64,000 nucleotides of DNA. Source: Escherichia coli. Lineage in GTDB: Bacteria; Pseudomonadota; Gammaproteobacteria; Enterobacterales; Enterobacteriaceae. The notes beneath the pieces are model-generated. The model was not told the origin of the DNA, did no database searches, and saw only the letters and a program-made list of their open reading frames with translations. Each line of letters begins with the position of its first letter. Positions within the stretch are counted from its first letter, which is position 1. Shown in pieces: positions 4,297-12,408 of the stretch. The stretch lies in assembly GCF_044324875.1 (NCBI RefSeq), contig NZ_CP172186.1. One strand, written 5' to 3'. The position numbers were made by a program, and so were the translations under genes.

Positions 4297-6570
4297 TTAA
4301 TGTCCGGGCCACTCCTGTTGTTCAGTGACGTGATGTGATATTTCTTCTTTAGCTGTAGCCTCATTCTGGAGGTTTGAAGTAAATATACGCTCCATTGTTT
4401 GTGCAACCGATGGTGGCATTTTTTCTTCCACACGTTCCTCTTCCGGACAACTCTGTGTGATATAGCATACGTGCCGTTCTTCCCGGGATGTGGTATTGAT
4501 GATGTGAACTGCCTTGTTCCACAGGCTGTTTCCCCGGGCAGAGATATCTGTATCATATTGCGGAAGCAGATCCAGCGATGTTTGTGTTTCGTTAAGCTGC
4601 TTCTGGAAGGTATCGATGATACGGTAAGGCTCTGTACGGTTTTTACGACGTTTACGGGATGGTTTTGCTGTCAGTACACCAATAATGCTGCTGACATGCT
4701 CCGGTGTGGGAAAACGGCGCTGCACTGTCCTGGGGACGAGACGGCGGAGACGCTCCAGGCGGGGGGCTTCAACGGAAATATAGCGGTTGATGACCACCGG
4801 ATCACTGTCGCAACTTTTCTCGCTGTCCGGAATATACACAGAGGCTGACGGCACCACATCCCCCTGGAAAACGGTAAAGAACTCACCGGCATTCAGTCTG
4901 ATCAAATCCTGCACGTCGATTTTGCTTTCCATCTGGATGGTGATCTGGTTACCGTCCACCCAGGACTCACCCATCACACCATCGTGGCGCTGCAGGCTGC
5001 CCATTCTGGCCCGAGCCTCTTCACCGGCGGCATTTTTCACCGTTCTTGCCGTTTTGTCGTCACTGACAATGCGTCCGGCGAATTTGGTGCCGGCGTTCTG
5101 CATCAGTGTGGCGGTGTTGGTGGCGGAGGTCTGCCCTTCAATTCGCTCCTGATCCTGCGCCATCATTATCAGGGAAAACTCCAGTGAACGTACCTGGGTG
5201 GCCTCCACAGCAATGCGGTCTGTGTAGTAGGCACCGACTTCGTCAAGGATACAGATATAGGGGAAGCGGCCTTTGTATTTTTTTACTTCCAGGGTCTGTG
5301 CGTCTGTGCCTTCCAGGCGGTAGCCCAGGTCACGGGCGAGGATCATGCTCTGCTGGGTGATGAACATACGACCGAGTGCCGACGTGGTATGGGCTGATGT
5401 GTCCAGTGCGGGGATCATCACAATCAGAATTCGGTCGCTGTGGATACTGTCGCGAATATCGATGTCGCCGGCATCTGCCGCAAAGACGTCCCCGAAGGTT
5501 TCGGCAAAGGTTGTGAATGTTTCCGAGAACTGACCGGAGAGATAAGCATGCTGTTTACGGGGCTCCTCAGTCCAGGCTGACGGCGTTCTCACCAGTGACA
5601 TATCGAATCCCGGAACGTCCTGCAGGTAATTTCTCAGTGGTGCGATGGCTTCTTCCGGCCACTGGTCATCAAGCCCACGGCAATAGAGTTTTGCCATACC
5701 TTCCAGCGTCATATGCTCCCGTAACATCTGCAGGGACATGGTTTTTCTTTCCCGGACGCACCAGAATTTTGTGCCAAAGACCAGGGCTTTGTTCATGGCT
5801 ATCGCCCGTGACTGCCATTCACCCCCCTGAACGTTCTGGGGAAGCATGGACTGCATGGTTTCGGCGGTGAAGGCTTCGGTGCTGAATGCGAACGGGTTCC
5901 AGGTGTTTGACTGTGGGCGGGATTTTTCGCCGCTCTGAATGATTTCACTGCGGGATTTTCCGCCGTTCATGAAGTTGATGACCTCGATATCATCCTCCCG
6001 GCCAAAACGTCGGGAGAGATACCAGATTGTCCTCGTGGTATCGTTCTGTGCCTTTCCGTCAACAAAGGTAAAGCCTCTTCCCCAGCAGAGAGGGTTGAGC
6101 AGCCAGGCAAAGGTGGTTTCTGTTTTACCGCCACCGGTGGTGGAAAAAAATATGATATGCCGGGTGAGGTCATCCATGCTCAGCCAGAGCTCACGACCGA
6201 TATCGTTGATACGGCGGTAACCGACATAAAAAATCCCCCGTGCGGGGGATGTTTCATCTGCTTCATACTGAAACAGGGTGGGCCAGAAGCTGAAGAGGCT
6301 TCGCCTGACCTTTCTGTCCTGGGAGGGGTCATCAAGGCTGAGCGTCATGGGCATACGCAGGGGGCATCGCCAGCGTTGCAGCGTGAATATCACGGAGGTG
6401 ACCAGGGTGAACAGCAGACAGACAGGAAGGGCCAGTGGCCATATCAGGGCCGTAATGATACTGCCGGCCAGACACAGACCAATGATGTTCAGGTTGTGCA
6501 GTGCATTCCACAGCGGGTTTCCCCAGGCCGTGCGGTGTATGAGGTCAGGATTAACGTGATGCTGGCTCAT
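4297..6570 (-). CDS. trbC: Type IV coupling protein, TrbC/DotL(IcmO)-like
   Basis: 757 aa, N-terminal TM helices, Walker A STTGGGKTET; last gene of a trbA-trbB-trbC unit as in IncI1. Confidence 0.75.
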   Translation of the reverse strand: MSQHHVNPDLIHRTAWGNPLWNALHNLNIIGLCLAGSIITALIWPLALPVCLLFTLVTSVIFTLQRWRCPLRMPMTLSLDDPSQDRKVRRSLFSFWPTLFQYEADETSPARGIFYVGYRRINDIGRELWLSMDDLTRHIIFFSTTGGGKTETTFAWLLNPLCWGRGFTFVDGKAQNDTTRTIWYLSRRFGREDDIEVINFMNGGKSRSEIIQSGEKSRPQSNTWNPFAFSTEAFTAETMQSMLPQNVQGGEWQSRAIAMNKALVFGTKFWCVRERKTMSLQMLREHMTLEGMAKLYCRGLDDQWPEEAIAPLRNYLQDVPGFDMSLVRTPSAWTEEPRKQHAYLSGQFSETFTTFAETFGDVFAADAGDIDIRDSIHSDRILIVMIPALDTSAHTTSALGRMFITQQSMILARDLGYRLEGTDAQTLEVKKYKGRFPYICILDEVGAYYTDRIAVEATQVRSLEFSLIMMAQDQERIEGQTSATNTATLMQNAGTKFAGRIVSDDKTARTVKNAAGEEARARMGSLQRHDGVMGESWVDGNQITIQMESKIDVQDLIRLNAGEFFTVFQGDVVPSASVYIPDSEKSCDSDPVVINRYISVEAPRLERLRRLVPRTVQRRFPTPEHVSSIIGVLTAKPSRKRRKNRTEPYRIIDTFQKQLNETQTSLDLLPQYDTDISARGNSLWNKAVHIINTTSREERHVCYITQSCPEEERVEEKMPPSVAQTMERIFTSNLQNEATAKEEISHHVTEQQEWPGH

Positions 6571-7669
6571 TGTGATTATCCTCGGTATCTGTGGCTTTCA
6601 GGAACAGGCTGACGGTAGTGGCGTCTTTCAGGATGCCGGACGGCAGGTGCCAGCCGGTATCGGATAACACCCATGGGGTACCGCCAAAACCGAACTGGCG
6701 GAAAGCCTGGTTATTGACATCGATGGCAGCACGAGCAGCGGTCAGACACTTTTCATCCGGTGCAGCCGGTGCATCGCCGGTGGGTGCCATACCACCGTCT
6801 GCGGAATACAGCTGATGCCATCCGGTCGCCCGTTTTTGTGCGTCCGGTTCACACAGCAGTGGCGCAGTCCGGTTTGTGCTGGCCTCTCCGCCGATTACGG
6901 AGACCGGATAAATCACCACGCTGAATTCCCGGGCCAGTTGCTTAAGCGCGGGCTCCAGAAGACGGCAGTTGATGCATGCGGGGTCAAGGAAGGCGTAGAG
7001 TGTGCGTTCATGACCAGTGGAGAGATTAATGGTGAACATACCCCGGTCCGCGTTGCGTTTAAGTACAGTGGCCAGATTACGGCGGGCTTCAGCGACCAGA
7101 GTATTTTTGTCTGCTGTTATCGCCGGGGTAGCGGATGTCTCCTGCATTTCCTGTGATGCCGGGTGAACGATTTCATTTTTCGTCTCTGACGGGGCTACTG
7201 ACCGGACAATTTCCTTGTCGATGTGTAATGGTGCTGTTTCTGTTACGGATTCTGTGACAGGTACCCTGAGAGGGGAATCGCTGTCCGGTTTCAGTAAAAT
7301 ATATCCGGCTGTTACCGCTGTCAGAAGTGCCAGCACTAATCCTGCACCGTATATCAGCCCTCTCATGAAGCTGGTTTTCCGGGCAGGAAGTTCTGCATAT
7401 GCCGCGCTCAGACAGCTGTCAATCGCGGAGAGCATTCTGCCGATGTGATGTCCGGGACGTTCAGTATCAACGGTATCAACAAGCAGTGTTTCGGTTATTT
7501 CACGAAAAGGGGTGCTGAAGGACAGGTGCATCAGCCTGTTATTACGGTTAATCAGTGCGCCCAGTTCTGTAACCGGCAGGATGGCAATAACCTCCTGACC
7601 ACCGTCAGGGTACAGGGCGGTCAGGGACAGGTGTTTATTGTTCAGTGTTGCAGTGTAGCGGATGGTCAT
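6551..7669 (-). CDS. trbB: TrbB, DsbC-like thiol:disulfide interchange protein
   Basis: 372 aa, TM/signal anchor, thioredoxin-type CINC (CxxC) motif; coupled between trbA and trbC. Confidence 0.65.
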   Translation of the reverse strand: MTIRYTATLNNKHLSLTALYPDGGQEVIAILPVTELGALINRNNRLMHLSFSTPFREITETLLVDTVDTERPGHHIGRMLSAIDSCLSAAYAELPARKTSFMRGLIYGAGLVLALLTAVTAGYILLKPDSDSPLRVPVTESVTETAPLHIDKEIVRSVAPSETKNEIVHPASQEMQETSATPAITADKNTLVAEARRNLATVLKRNADRGMFTINLSTGHERTLYAFLDPACINCRLLEPALKQLAREFSVVIYPVSVIGGEASTNRTAPLLCEPDAQKRATGWHQLYSADGGMAPTGDAPAAPDEKCLTAARAAIDVNNQAFRQFGFGGTPWVLSDTGWHLPSGILKDATTVSLFLKATDTEDNHNEPASR

Positions 7670-8982
7670 TGTGCTTTTTCCTTGTCGGCGGGATGCTGTT
7701 TTTCGGTGGTTTCGGTGGTTTCGGTGGTTTCGGTGGTTTCGGTGGTTTCGGTGGTTTCGGTGGTTTCACCAGTGTCAGTGTCTTCGTCGTTATCATGGCG
7801 GCGGGGTATCACGTCATCCGTGAGTGACCAGCGGGTCCTGATCTGACGTTTACGATCGCGATCTGGCTGAGGTTCGTCCCATATCAGGCCCAGCCCCAGC
7901 ATGTCCCGTCGAAGCCCTTCAATGGCCTCTTCCACACAGGGTTCCGGGCAGGGGAGGCCGAGACGGCTGGCTTCATTTTCTGCCCGGGCAACGGCCACCA
8001 CGCCGGCCCCTTCGATGAAGCCTTTTGTGGTGTTTGCCCGGTGAAGGGCATAGAAGAGCGTCCGGTCAACGCCCTTGAGCCACAGCCAGTTCGGAGGCGT
8101 CAGGCGCAAATCATGTGCGTAAAGCCAGACCAGACCGCTGCGAACGTAACGGTGCTGCCTGAGCCACTTTTGTGCGCCTTCTGTTTTGATGACCCGGATA
8201 AAGGCGTTTCTGGCCAGTGAATACACCGGCGTGCTGAAACGCCCCTGGTCCCGTTTACTTTTGAGCCTGCAGGAGAGATTGAGGTTGTTCATCAGGGCTA
8301 CCGCTGCTTTCCGGTCACCGAGGAAGAACTGCAGGCCAAAGATGGCAAAGAGCGCTTTTTCATGTGGGGCCATGTCTTTCCAGCTGGTCAGTGGTTGCCC
8401 CAGTTGCGCCATGAAGCACTGGCGTGTGGACGCAACATCGAGCTGCATGTTGCGGATAAGGTTGTTCTGCTCCACAAAGGCTTCGGGGGTTAGTGCGACA
8501 CGGCGCTCGGGACGTTTTTGTCCGTGGAAGAGTCTGTTGTTGTCTCCGTCAGCCAGAACGGGGGCGATCGCCGGTGACAGAGCTGAAAAAATATGGGGCA
8601 GTGTGTGGATATTCAGTGGCCTGCGGGTAAAACGGGGCTGGGCCGGATGGTGAAACCACATCCACAGAAAGCCGAATGTCATGGGAAGCAGAATCAGCCA
8701 GAGGATCCCCACTGTCCGGGACATAACATCCAGCCACTGGCTGAAAGTGATGGTTGCCGCGTTGTTAGCAGTGATGGCCAGCAGGTTGTAACGGGGGACG
8801 GCAAAGTTGTGAAAGGGCCCCCAGTCAATCATGCCCCACAGTGTGTGCAGGATCAGGCAGGAGGCGAAGACGATTTCAGGTAAAAAGCGCCAGATGATAA
8901 TCGCAAAGAGCAGGCATATGGCACCGACGATATACCATATAGCCATTGGATCTTCGGCGGCAGACGTCTGTTGGTAAGACAC
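7666..8982 (-). CDS. trbA: TrbA/DotM(IcmP)-like inner-membrane protein with C-terminal (TET)n acidic repeat
   Basis: 438 aa, several TM segments; position and size fit IncI1 TrbA. Confidence 0.65.
   Translation of the reverse strand: MSYQQTSAAEDPMAIWYIVGAICLLFAIIIWRFLPEIVFASCLILHTLWGMIDWGPFHNFAVPRYNLLAITANNAATITFSQWLDVMSRTVGILWLILLPMTFGFLWMWFHHPAQPRFTRRPLNIHTLPHIFSALSPAIAPVLADGDNNRLFHGQKRPERRVALTPEAFVEQNNLIRNMQLDVASTRQCFMAQLGQPLTSWKDMAPHEKALFAIFGLQFFLGDRKAAVALMNNLNLSCRLKSKRDQGRFSTPVYSLARNAFIRVIKTEGAQKWLRQHRYVRSGLVWLYAHDLRLTPPNWLWLKGVDRTLFYALHRANTTKGFIEGAGVVAVARAENEASRLGLPCPEPCVEEAIEGLRRDMLGLGLIWDEPQPDRDRKRQIRTRWSLTDDVIPRRHDNDEDTDTGETTETTETTETTETTETTETTEKQHPADKEKAQ
7701..7766. repeat. Tandem 9-bp repeat TTTCGGTGG x7 (coding, minus strand ACCGAAACC = Thr-Glu-Thr)
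   Basis: Seven perfect head-to-tail copies inside the 3' end of trbA. Confidence 0.9.
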
Positions 8983-9292
8983 GGGGATTCCTCCATAGAT
9001 GAATGGATAAATTTCGGGATTAAGTCGGGTGGCATGAATGCGAATCAGCGCCGGTAATAACCGGACAGGAATGAATTCAACAGGACATTTTTACAGAGAA
9101 GAGCGAACGGCAGAAGGTGGTGGGAGACAGGTACAAAAAAACCGACTGGTGAGGCCGGTTTTTTTGCGATTCCGGGGTGGAGTTGGTGGCTCTGACCGGA
9201 GGAAGTCTCTTTTCAGCTAACAATGAGAGAGCTGTTGTGACAGGCAATGTAAGAGTAAGCAGCAGTGATTTCCTCCATTGACGGAGAAACGG

Positions 9293-10565: not shown

Positions 10566-12204
10566 AGTAGCCCGGACCACGCAGGTTTTCATGCTCTGAA
10601 GCATATGCCGGATGTTGTTCGCCCTGGCGGGATAATGGAAGCTCCAGGTTCTCCCGATGGTGACGCAGCAGATTGTCGATAAAGCGTCTGTCAGGGGCGT
10701 TATAGTGCAGGGCAACGTAACAGGCCTTTTCCAGCCGTTCCGGGCCGTATTTTTTCTGAAGTGCCAGCAGCCCCAGAACTGCACGATAAGCCAGTTCCGG
10801 ATGGGGTTTTGCCTTCAGCATGGATTCAACCACCCGGCCTGTGGACGGGCCCGTACGTTTTCCCTGCTCGATCAGGCGTTCCGGTGTCCATGTCCCGTGC
10901 TGCCGGTGGCGCTCTGGCATGTGAAGCGGATTGGTTGTGTGTTTATATTCATGTGTGCTGCGCGGATGTTGCGCCACACACTGCCCCTTGTGCCAGAGCT
11001 GTACCACCGACTGCCCCGCCTTCAGTGACAGACGCTGACCGACCAGTTCGTGTGGAACGGAGTACCAGTGACGGGCATATTCAACGTGGTAGTCAGGGCC
11101 AACCTTCACAGCTTTGTATTCCGTGTATTCATAAGGTGCCAGAGGCAGCGGAGAGAGTGCTGGCGCATCCAGTATGCGGAAGCGTTCTGCACGGGTTTGA
11201 TTGCCGTACCCCTTCATTGGCCGGTTATTCATGTCTGTCAGTAACTCCCTAAGGCGCGCATTCAGCGCCCTGAGCGTGTGGAAGGTTTCATTACGGATGC
11301 GGGCAAGAAGCCATCGTTCAACGATGAGGACGCCGTTTTCTGCTTTTGGTTTATCTTTAGGTTTGCGTGGTCGGGCCGGGATGATAACCGTGCCATAGTG
11401 CTCAGCCAGTGCCTGATAACTGTCGTTGATGACAGGCTCATATCGATCGGCCTTTTTCACTGCGCTTCTGAGGTTATCGGGGATGAGCAGCTTCGGTACG
11501 CCGCCCAGGAAGGTCAGGCAACGGCTGTGGGCATTTAACCATGACATCATGTCCTGACCTTCGCACGCTTCAACGTAGGTATAGTTGGACGCCCCCATTA
11601 CGGCCACGAAGATTGCCACGCGGCGTATCTCACCGGTGTCCGGATTAATAACAGGAACCGTAGGACCACAGAAGTCGATAAAAAGCTTTTCGCCGGCACG
11701 ATGCTCCTGGCGCATGGAGAGACGTCGCGTTTTTTTCCACTCCCGGTAGCAACGGCAGAAGTGCGAGTATCCCATCGCTTTGTTACCCGCCTGTGCCTTG
11801 TATTCCATCCACAACAGTTGCCGCGTCACACCTGGTTTTCTCATTTCCGTATCGAAGTACAACATGTCAGGCATTACAAGCTCTGATGCAAAGGTGTCTT
11901 TGGGCGGAAAAATGAGTTTCTCCAGCGTGTCATGGGATATATCAGCAGGTAATGGCCATGACAGAGAAGAGGCTTTGAAGCGGGCAAGAACCTCAAAAAC
12001 GGTTGAGGCGCTGATGTGTAACGTCAGTCCGATACAACGGTTAGTCAGCTTCTTGTCGAACTTGAGCTGAAGGATCTTAAAACAGGTTTCCATAGTGCTC
12101 CTGGATTTTCTCTTTCTGGACATTGACGTCTCCACTGGTTTAAACACGGCAATGGAGACTGTGGTGAAAAGAGTTAATTCCCGGAGTGACTGGCAGGATG
12201 CCAA
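10558..12204 (-). CDS. istA: IS21-family transposase IstA (true start probably internal, METCFKIL at ~12093)
   Basis: N-terminal HTH, LSWPLPA motif, DDE core; 2-nt spacing to istB. Confidence 0.9.
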   Translation of the reverse strand: MASCQSLRELTLFTTVSIAVFKPVETSMSRKRKSRSTMETCFKILQLKFDKKLTNRCIGLTLHISASTVFEVLARFKASSLSWPLPADISHDTLEKLIFPPKDTFASELVMPDMLYFDTEMRKPGVTRQLLWMEYKAQAGNKAMGYSHFCRCYREWKKTRRLSMRQEHRAGEKLFIDFCGPTVPVINPDTGEIRRVAIFVAVMGASNYTYVEACEGQDMMSWLNAHSRCLTFLGGVPKLLIPDNLRSAVKKADRYEPVINDSYQALAEHYGTVIIPARPRKPKDKPKAENGVLIVERWLLARIRNETFHTLRALNARLRELLTDMNNRPMKGYGNQTRAERFRILDAPALSPLPLAPYEYTEYKAVKVGPDYHVEYARHWYSVPHELVGQRLSLKAGQSVVQLWHKGQCVAQHPRSTHEYKHTTNPLHMPERHRQHGTWTPERLIEQGKRTGPSTGRVVESMLKAKPHPELAYRAVLGLLALQKKYGPERLEKACYVALHYNAPDRRFIDNLLRHHRENLELPLSRQGEQHPAYASEHENLRGPGYYH

Positions 12205-12408
12205 TCAATGATCGGAAGCATGCCAAATCGTGATCGATTGTGATGCCAAACTGTGATCGGAGATGGATGCCAAATCATGATCGATTCGAATGCCAAACTG
12301 CGATCGATTCAGATGCCATTTTGCAGGTAAAAATGGCAATTTTTTTCATGCTGTATTTTTGCCATTTATTTTCTTTGAAATGGTTTTTTTCTTCATATCA
12401 GCAAATAA

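Follow-up and report, generated by a model that had tools for sequence, protein, structure and literature searches.

An in-frame 9-bp tandem repeat of variable copy number in trbA of IncK2/Z and B/O-type conjugative plasmids

In-frame variable-number tandem repeats (VNTRs) are an ordinary, well-known kind of feature, and the repeat in the conjugation gene trbA described here is an added case. Its closest analogue is the Gln-Gln-Pro (QQP) region of F-like TraD, where in-frame variable short repeats lie in a non-catalytic C-terminal extension, according to the relevant sections of Lang et al. 2011 (PMC3245843). TrbA of the IncI1 plasmids R64/ColIb-P9 is an essential conjugation protein (Furuya and Komano 1996, as cited in PMC10286972), and the passages of PMC10286972 on this gene list trbA as essential to conjugation in both R64 and the I-complex plasmid pMS7163B. 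The molecular role of TrbA beyond transfer essentiality is described as unknown in the pertinent parts of PMC5802825 and PMC10286972. In Legionella, DotM recruits effectors through their acidic Glu-rich tails, with the arginines R196/R197, R217, and R314/R315 implicated (excerpts of PMC5802825). Here, we analyzed a 64,000-nucleotide stretch of Escherichia coli DNA (contig NZ_CP172186.1, hereafter the window), in which trbA contains a perfect 9-bp tandem repeat close to its 3' end, and compared this array across related plasmids. No description of a trbA repeat was found in the open-access literature searched, although one may exist elsewhere.

Our analysis indicates that the array is probably a slippage-driven in-frame VNTR in trbA of IncK2/Z and B/O-type I-complex plasmids, tolerated in a disordered tail of the protein. 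The features that carry this reading are as follows.

7701..7767, minus strand: in-frame 9-bp VNTR (Tandem Repeats Finder, raw sequence, codon layout; chance expectation 0).
7669..7704, minus strand: invariant post-array segment encoding EKQHPADKEKAQ (comparison of the alleles read).
7666..8982, minus strand: trbA coding sequence, 438 amino acids (aa), GTG start (open reading frame list, Pfam DotM_C, alignment with PDB DotM).

Tandem Repeats Finder reported a period of 9, 7.4 copies, 100% matches, no indels, and a score of 134 at 7701–7767, the top period-9 score within the window. The raw letters read seven copies of TTTCGGTGG across 7701–7763, followed by TTTC. A probe of three units gave five overlapping matches, all of them in the array, and none in 100 dinucleotide-preserving shuffles of the window. 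On the minus strand, the array reads (GAA ACC ACC)×7 from 7767 down to 7705 and then GAA A, encoding (Glu-Thr-Thr)7 at TrbA residues 406–426 followed by Glu427, with a Gly preceding the array and 11 further residues (KQHPADKEKAQ) between Glu427 and the stop codon. With 7.4 perfect 9-bp units, it is an in-frame coding VNTR in the sense of at least three head-to-tail units, of a length that is a multiple of 3, in a real coding sequence. The original prediction, made from the letters of the window, had described seven perfect in-frame 9-bp units in TrbA, which agrees with the 7.4 copies at 100% identity. It had placed them at 7701–7766, of which the start is right and the end is corrected here to 7767; it had also named a (Thr-Glu-Thr)n acidic tail, and the repeat itself stands (ETT rotated by one residue). 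The array is not at the extreme C terminus, given the 11 residues after Glu427. The post-array segment is constant in all alleles read of the array type found in the window (C-type, defined below), except for A/E at the penultimate residue. Within it lies a putative Shine-Dalgarno sequence of the downstream gene trbB, AAGGA at 7683–7679 on the minus strand, as read from the sequence. The stop codon of trbA overlaps the ATG of trbB (ATGA at 7669–7666), and the array ends 32 nt upstream of the trbB start.

To determine the copy number across plasmids, a 471-bp query around the array was used, which returned 471 PLSDB records, and a systematic sample of 60 was taken across the ranking. Among the RefSeq complete E. 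coli genomes, 380 of 5426 (~7%) carry this trbA type, and 59 records were sampled. The two samples overlap and hence are not independent. Copy numbers (n) in the samples were taken from alignment spans, while direct base-by-base reading covered 23 arrays in 22 PLSDB plasmid records. The sampled records were distributed as follows.

PLSDB sample (60 records): 7 with n = 1, 7 with n = 2, 3 with n = 3, 5 with n = 4, 5 with n = 5, 8 with n = 6, 9 with n = 7, 3 with n = 8, 3 with n = 9, 5 with n = 10, 2 with n = 11, 3 with n = 12, and 0 with n = 13.
RefSeq complete E. coli sample (59 records): 8 with n = 1, 13 with n = 2, 2 with n = 3, 8 with n = 4, 3 with n = 5, 5 with n = 6, 5 with n = 7, 5 with n = 8, 4 with n = 9, 2 with n = 10, 2 with n = 11, 1 with n = 12, and 1 with n = 13.

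The 23 arrays read directly contain 1–13 and 16 units, with the remainder of the tail unchanged: n = 16, 13, 12, 11, 10, 9, 8, 7, 6, 5, 4, 3, 2, and 1 at loci L001–L016, and n = 10, 6, 9, 7, 8, and 9 at loci L023–L028. Every length difference among ~180 sampled records, including the 60 PLSDB and 59 RefSeq records, is an exact multiple of 9. The direct reads thus bear out the expectation that the copy number is prone to slippage changes, the multiples of 9 bear out that such changes keep the frame, and the comparison across related plasmids revealed a variable copy number rather than one invariant in all homologs. When PLSDB was ranked with a synthetic 25-unit query, the longest array had 16 units (one record) and the next longest 13 units (at least 8 records); no allele of more than 16 units was seen in this ranking or in the samples, and no n = 0 allele was present among the ~180 sampled records. 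An exact look-up of synthetic TrbA alleles with n = 0–9 in a collection of 15 billion proteins found n = 3 only; since the RefSeq n = 7 protein is also missing there, the collection is incomplete and its absences are uninformative. The array is lineage-specific, a point that the original prediction could not see: IncK2/Z and B/O-type plasmids carry it, and IncI1/R64-type TrbA does not.

Comparison of closely related records indicated that the length changes are recent. Over the 1071 bp surrounding the array, 33 records match the window at 100% identity, and these have n = 7 (3 records), 11 (8 records), 12 (18 records), 13 (3 records), or 16 (1 record). In records with 4, 5, 6, 8, 9, or 10 units, the gap is essentially the sole difference from the window, and the nearest relative of the window over ~20 kb, pLH50-c-A (99.9% identity), has 9 units against 7. 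The recent expansion proposed from the identity of the units is borne out by the identical flanks and the closest relative. Comparison of two plasmids of one type, pNFI1 (119,378 bp, n = 12) and MT725450 (119,333 bp, n = 7), based on alignment start coordinates and total lengths, showed the same alignment start and total lengths that differ by exactly 45 bp. The IncK2/Z record NZ_CP016548.1 (90,835 bp) carries two trbB-trbA copies, 66,051 bp apart, with 11 and 12 units (loci L004 and L030). The copies share identical 1.3-kb flanks on either side and correspond to window positions 6400–9070, and they stem either from a true duplication or from a circular assembly whose overlap was left untrimmed; the copy number differs within the data of one isolate either way, which is the only hint of length heterogeneity within one clone. 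Individual alleles also recur: n = 12 is shared by 18 records of isolates from Danish farms, slaughterhouses, and food, and n = 2 by 13 RefSeq records, many of which are large (118–174 kb) plasmids from human and bovine isolates. A single allele can thus persist unchanged in numerous isolates of an epidemic plasmid. Because alleles both vary on identical flanks and recur, the locus is fast on the scale of plasmid lineages and does not change at every transfer.

The arrays read fall into two types, which are distinguished by ACC-type and ACT-type units. The C-type array, found in the window lineage, consists of (GAAACCACC)n with the exit GAAAAACAG, i.e., GAA AAA CAG (EKQ). The T-type array consists of GAAACCACC(GAAACCACT)n-1 with the exit GAAACCCGG, i.e., GAA ACC CGG (ETR), and its lineage shows n = 1, 2, 3, 4, and 9. 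As two unit variants were amplified, there were at least two independent expansions. The alleles with a single unit, GETTEKQ and GETTETR, resemble the state before expansion, and in the T-type lineage, GAAACCACC-GAAACC is already a proto-repeat of 1.7 units.

To examine where the array lies in the protein, we predicted the TrbA structure with AlphaFold2 from a 21-sequence alignment. The model shows a confident helical fold through the helix at 351–364, and residues 373–438 have predicted local distance difference test (pLDDT) scores of 27–45 and no secondary structure. Because the pLDDT is below 50 for residues 373–438, the array is placed in a disordered acidic tail. The cytoplasmic domain (residues 116–358) has a net charge of +14 and an isoelectric point (pI) of 10.2, and the tail from residue 386 has a net charge of −12 at n = 7. 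Each unit adds one negative charge, so that from n = 0 to n = 16 the computed tail charge falls from −5 to −21, while the pI of the whole protein drops from 9.3 to 6.0. All 16 other relatives read (402–414 aa) end with a short acidic stretch and a terminal Phe (...DNEF, ...ESPF, ...EQPF, or ...DESF), in the part equivalent to window positions 7666–7800. By this comparison, the acidic tail is a trait of the TrbA family, and the ETT array together with the loss of the terminal Phe is specific to the IncK2/Z and B/O-type clade; the array marks the C-terminal tail of this DotM-like subunit as evolutionarily plastic yet consistently acidic. The tail of F-plasmid TraD that docks TraM is also acidic, with a Phe at the end. 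By analogy, the acidic ending with terminal Phe in IncI1-like TrbA could be a partner-docking motif.

The mechanism that we favor is that units are gained and lost through slipped-strand mispairing during replication, between perfect direct repeats. Unequal recombination between units may contribute; it is less likely and is not separable from slippage here. Arrays that are both pure and longer seem to change more quickly than those that are short or mixed. Given a disordered tail and an IncI1-type TrbA that works in the absence of the array, the length changes would be tolerated and largely neutral. All observed alleles keep the frame, the 12 downstream codons, and the overlapping trbB start, and the array is a protein-length polymorphism and not a phase-variation switch. 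We also considered a phase-variable contingency locus, in which a simple sequence repeat acts as an on/off switch, and rejected it: the unit is 9 bp, the ~180 length differences are all multiples of 9, and the array-trbB spacing is constant. No sigma-70-like promoter was found on either strand of 7550–7950; a 9-bp unit that cannot shift the frame, with no promoter-like site nearby, does not make a contingency switch.

Several points weigh against this reading. Slippage is inferred from the anatomy of the array, and the population copy numbers rest on alignment spans, with 23 arrays read base by base. The absence of n = 0 and of n > 16 could reflect selection, mutation bias, or sampling. The shift of charge and pI with n is not trivial, so that neutrality is likewise inferred. 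In addition, the conservation of an acidic C-terminal tail throughout the TrbA family makes some function of the tail probable.

The identity of TrbA bears on what such a function might be. The trbA gene encodes the subunit of the I-type (type IVB) conjugative coupling complex that resembles DotM/IcmP. It matches Pfam DotM_C (PF23127) at aa 185–358 (E = 1.6e-47, 162 bits against a cut-off of 27, profile positions 2–171 of 172), and residues 4–358 align with residues 9–362 of the full-length Legionella DotM/IcmP chain 6SZ9_B from the solved coupling complex. The PDB DotM chains match TrbA at E = 1.6e-07 to 2.7e-06. Against the NCBIfam DotM_IcmP equivalog model (NF033890), TrbA scores 70.7 bits and does not reach the cut-off of 230, so that it is a homolog and not an equivalog of Legionella DotM. 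AlphaFold2 predicted long helices at 12–32, 34–52, 55–73, and 92–110, in a region that is hydrophobic by eye and with which 6SZ9_B aligns from residue 9. Near-identical records carry the annotation "IncI1-type conjugal transfer protein TrbA." Two further genes follow trbA on the same strand.

6551..7669, minus strand: trbB, DsbC/thioredoxin-like, 372 aa (open reading frame list, weak Thioredoxin_2 match, "DsbC family protein" in related records).
4297..6570, minus strand: trbC, 757 aa, DotL-like type IV coupling protein and TrbA partner (NCBIfam TrbC_conju, Pfam TraG-D_C).

The trbC reading frame matches NCBIfam TrbC_conju above its cut-off (E = 1.3e-303) and also Pfam TraG-D_C. The minus-strand order 7666–8982, 6551–7669, and 4297–6570 is that of the trbA-trbB-trbC operon of I-complex plasmids, with the DotL-type ATPase gene in the same operon.

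The best surviving alternative is that the array acts as an adaptive tuning knob, in which the length and charge of (Glu-Thr-Thr)n modulate TrbA and variants are selected for transfer rates, hosts, or mating conditions; we regard this as unlikely. In one possible version, the tail folds back on the basic DotM-like domain and competes with the acidic parts of substrates or partners. The opposite charges of the cytoplasmic domain (residues 116–358, +14, pI 10.2) and of the tail (−12 at n = 7) fit such an arrangement, as does the binding of acidic Glu-rich peptides by basic surface patches of Legionella DotM (in the sections of PMC5802825 concerned). The acidic C-terminal tail conserved among TrbA relatives, the two independent expansions of the same motif, and the lack of an n = 0 allele among the ~180 sampled records also speak for it, and functional tuning keeps some probability because a large charge effect adjoins the basic DotM-like domain. 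However, of the DotM arginines for Glu-rich peptide binding, R314 alone is conserved (TrbA R307), while R196/R197 align to D182/V183, R217 to D203, and R315 to Thr, leaving 4 of 5 not conserved. The allele distribution is broad and flat (1–13) without a preferred length, and IncI1 TrbA functions without the array (R64 genetics, as cited in the corresponding part of PMC10286972). A more specific proposal, drawn by analogy with DotM and considered improbable here, is that the (Glu-Thr-Thr)n tail would be a mutationally tunable acidic pseudo-substrate docking in cis on the basic DotM-like domain. If true, slippage would continuously yield plasmid variants that differ in substrate recruitment or transfer efficiency, forming a heritable conjugation "rheostat" in the clinically important IncK2/B/O/Z carriers of blaCMY-2 and similar genes.

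It is much less probable that the array is a DNA- or RNA-level element, such as a binding-site array, a promoter spacer, or an mRNA structure that controls the translationally coupled trbB, with the protein effect incidental. The proximity of the array to the trbB start (32 nt) and the trbA/trbB overlap (ATGA) would suit this explanation, whereas the lack of a sigma-70-like promoter on either strand of 7550–7950 argues against it. The segment between the array and trbB, including AAGGA, is invariant, so that the spacing is never altered by the array; the unit GAAACCACC has no self-complementarity, and a functional site array is not expected to span 1–16 copies. A terminator role was likewise rejected, the sole terminator-like match being on the non-coding plus strand and within chance expectation. 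Least credible of all is a sequencing or assembly artefact, with the copy numbers as collapse or expansion errors in a short repeat: four draft contigs do break 4–5 nt into the array, and the 11- and 12-unit copies of NZ_CP016548.1, otherwise identical, could be an untrimmed assembly overlap, but an artefact is unlikely because the arrays are short (67 bp in the window, 144 bp for 16 units, most fitting within single reads), the same allele recurs in many independently sequenced isolates (n = 12 in 18 records, n = 2 in 13 RefSeq records), the differences are always whole units, and there are two array sequence types with different exit codons.

The VNTR also has practical consequences, as the array disturbs assembly and annotation through contig breaks, "partial" TrbA proteins, and degraded product names. 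The draft contigs that end 4–5 nt into the array (L019–L022; three from NCBI and one from Logan) are independent, and the repeat evidently breaks short-read assemblies. A contig would be expected to stop k−1 bases into the array, in contrast to the 4–5 nt observed; our guess is end-trimming by the assembler. The broken contigs give rise to "partial" TrbA proteins of 405–406 aa that end in ...DTDTG(E) (clusters P0002 and P0057), and one such truncated form is represented by 96 member sequences. Automatic product naming follows n: proteins with up to 9 units are named "IncI1-type conjugal transfer protein TrbA," and those with at least 10 units "conjugal transfer protein TrbA," "secretion/conjugation apparatus DotM-related subunit," or "hypothetical protein" (e.g., the 12-unit WP_041498596.1).

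The near-identical records are typed as IncK2/Z, MOBP, and MPF_I, and many of them are the poultry-associated blaCMY-2 IncK2 plasmids KR905384–KR905390. The transfer region of the window is 99.9% identical to pLH50-c-A over ~20 kb and 97.3% identical, in 6–7 pieces, to the pDV45/pNFI1 group. Coverage of the window's first 25 kb by any one PLSDB record is at most 79%, and the window is therefore a mosaic relative of IncK2 plasmids. The insertion sequence (IS) elements differ between relatives. A separate set of repeats lies at window positions 12196–12318, where 4–5 imperfect 23–24-bp direct repeats of roughly GATGCCAAAyyrTGATCGrwt (Tandem Repeats Finder periods 23 and 47) are non-coding and located upstream of a Hok/Gef-family (pnd) toxin gene. 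Just past them, at ~12320–12370, GCCATTTT and its reverse complement AAAATGGC recur. With at least 14 trbA alleles in IncK2/Z and B/O-type plasmids, the array could be used to sub-type near-identical epidemic blaCMY-2 plasmids, and it offers a natural allelic series for asking what role the TrbA tail plays.

Among the closest known systems, TrbA of IncI1 R64/ColIb-P9 belongs to the same family and the same trbA-trbB-trbC operon, with 77% identity over residues 1–394, and the DotM_C domain, the basic linker ...PDRDRKR.IRT.WSLTDD, and the acidic C terminus are common to both. The IncI1 R64-type protein is 402 aa long, is repeat-free, ends with ...LTDDILPRTPATDNEF (...PRTPATDNEF, with the terminal Phe), and is followed by an 18-nt spacer before trbB, whereas the window clade ends with RRHDNDEDTDTG(ETT)nEKQHPADKEKAQ and overlaps trbB. 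Legionella pneumophila DotM/IcmP (PDB 6EXA–6EXE and 6SZ9; Meir et al. 2018, in the structural sections of PMC5802825) is homologous over TrbA 4–358. Both proteins have an all-helical, highly basic cytoplasmic domain, preceded by an N-terminal membrane part in DotM and by a putative one in TrbA, and in both cases the gene lies beside that of a DotL-type ATPase. Unlike TrbA, which has 80 residues past the aligned domain (the repeat included), DotM has ~18, and the two are further set apart by the equivalog score below cut-off and by the 4 of 5 Glu-rich-binding arginines that are not conserved.

The TraD QQP region resembles the array in that it lies in the substrate-receptor module of a conjugative type IV system and varies in number among closely related plasmids (as set out in the corresponding sections of PMC3245843). 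It differs in that TraD is a VirD4-type ATPase of an MPF-F system, whereas TrbA is a DotM-like partner in an MPF-I system with its ATPase, TrbC, as a separate protein; QQP is neutral, in contrast to the acidic/polar ETT; and the TraD repeats precede a defined TraM-docking tail, while the residues after the TrbA array have no known partner. Membership in the F-like TraD QQP family was therefore rejected, as the repeat is not in a VirD4-family ATPase; the behavior is analogous and the families are separate. In its anatomy, the array is like the bacterial VNTRs used in multiple-locus VNTR analysis (MLVA), sharing perfect short units of multiple-of-3 length, whole units that come and go in a slippage-like way, and a wealth of alleles in closely related members. 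Unlike those, the trbA array lies in an essential transfer gene on a conjugative plasmid, and owing to that location it would type the plasmid and not the host chromosome.

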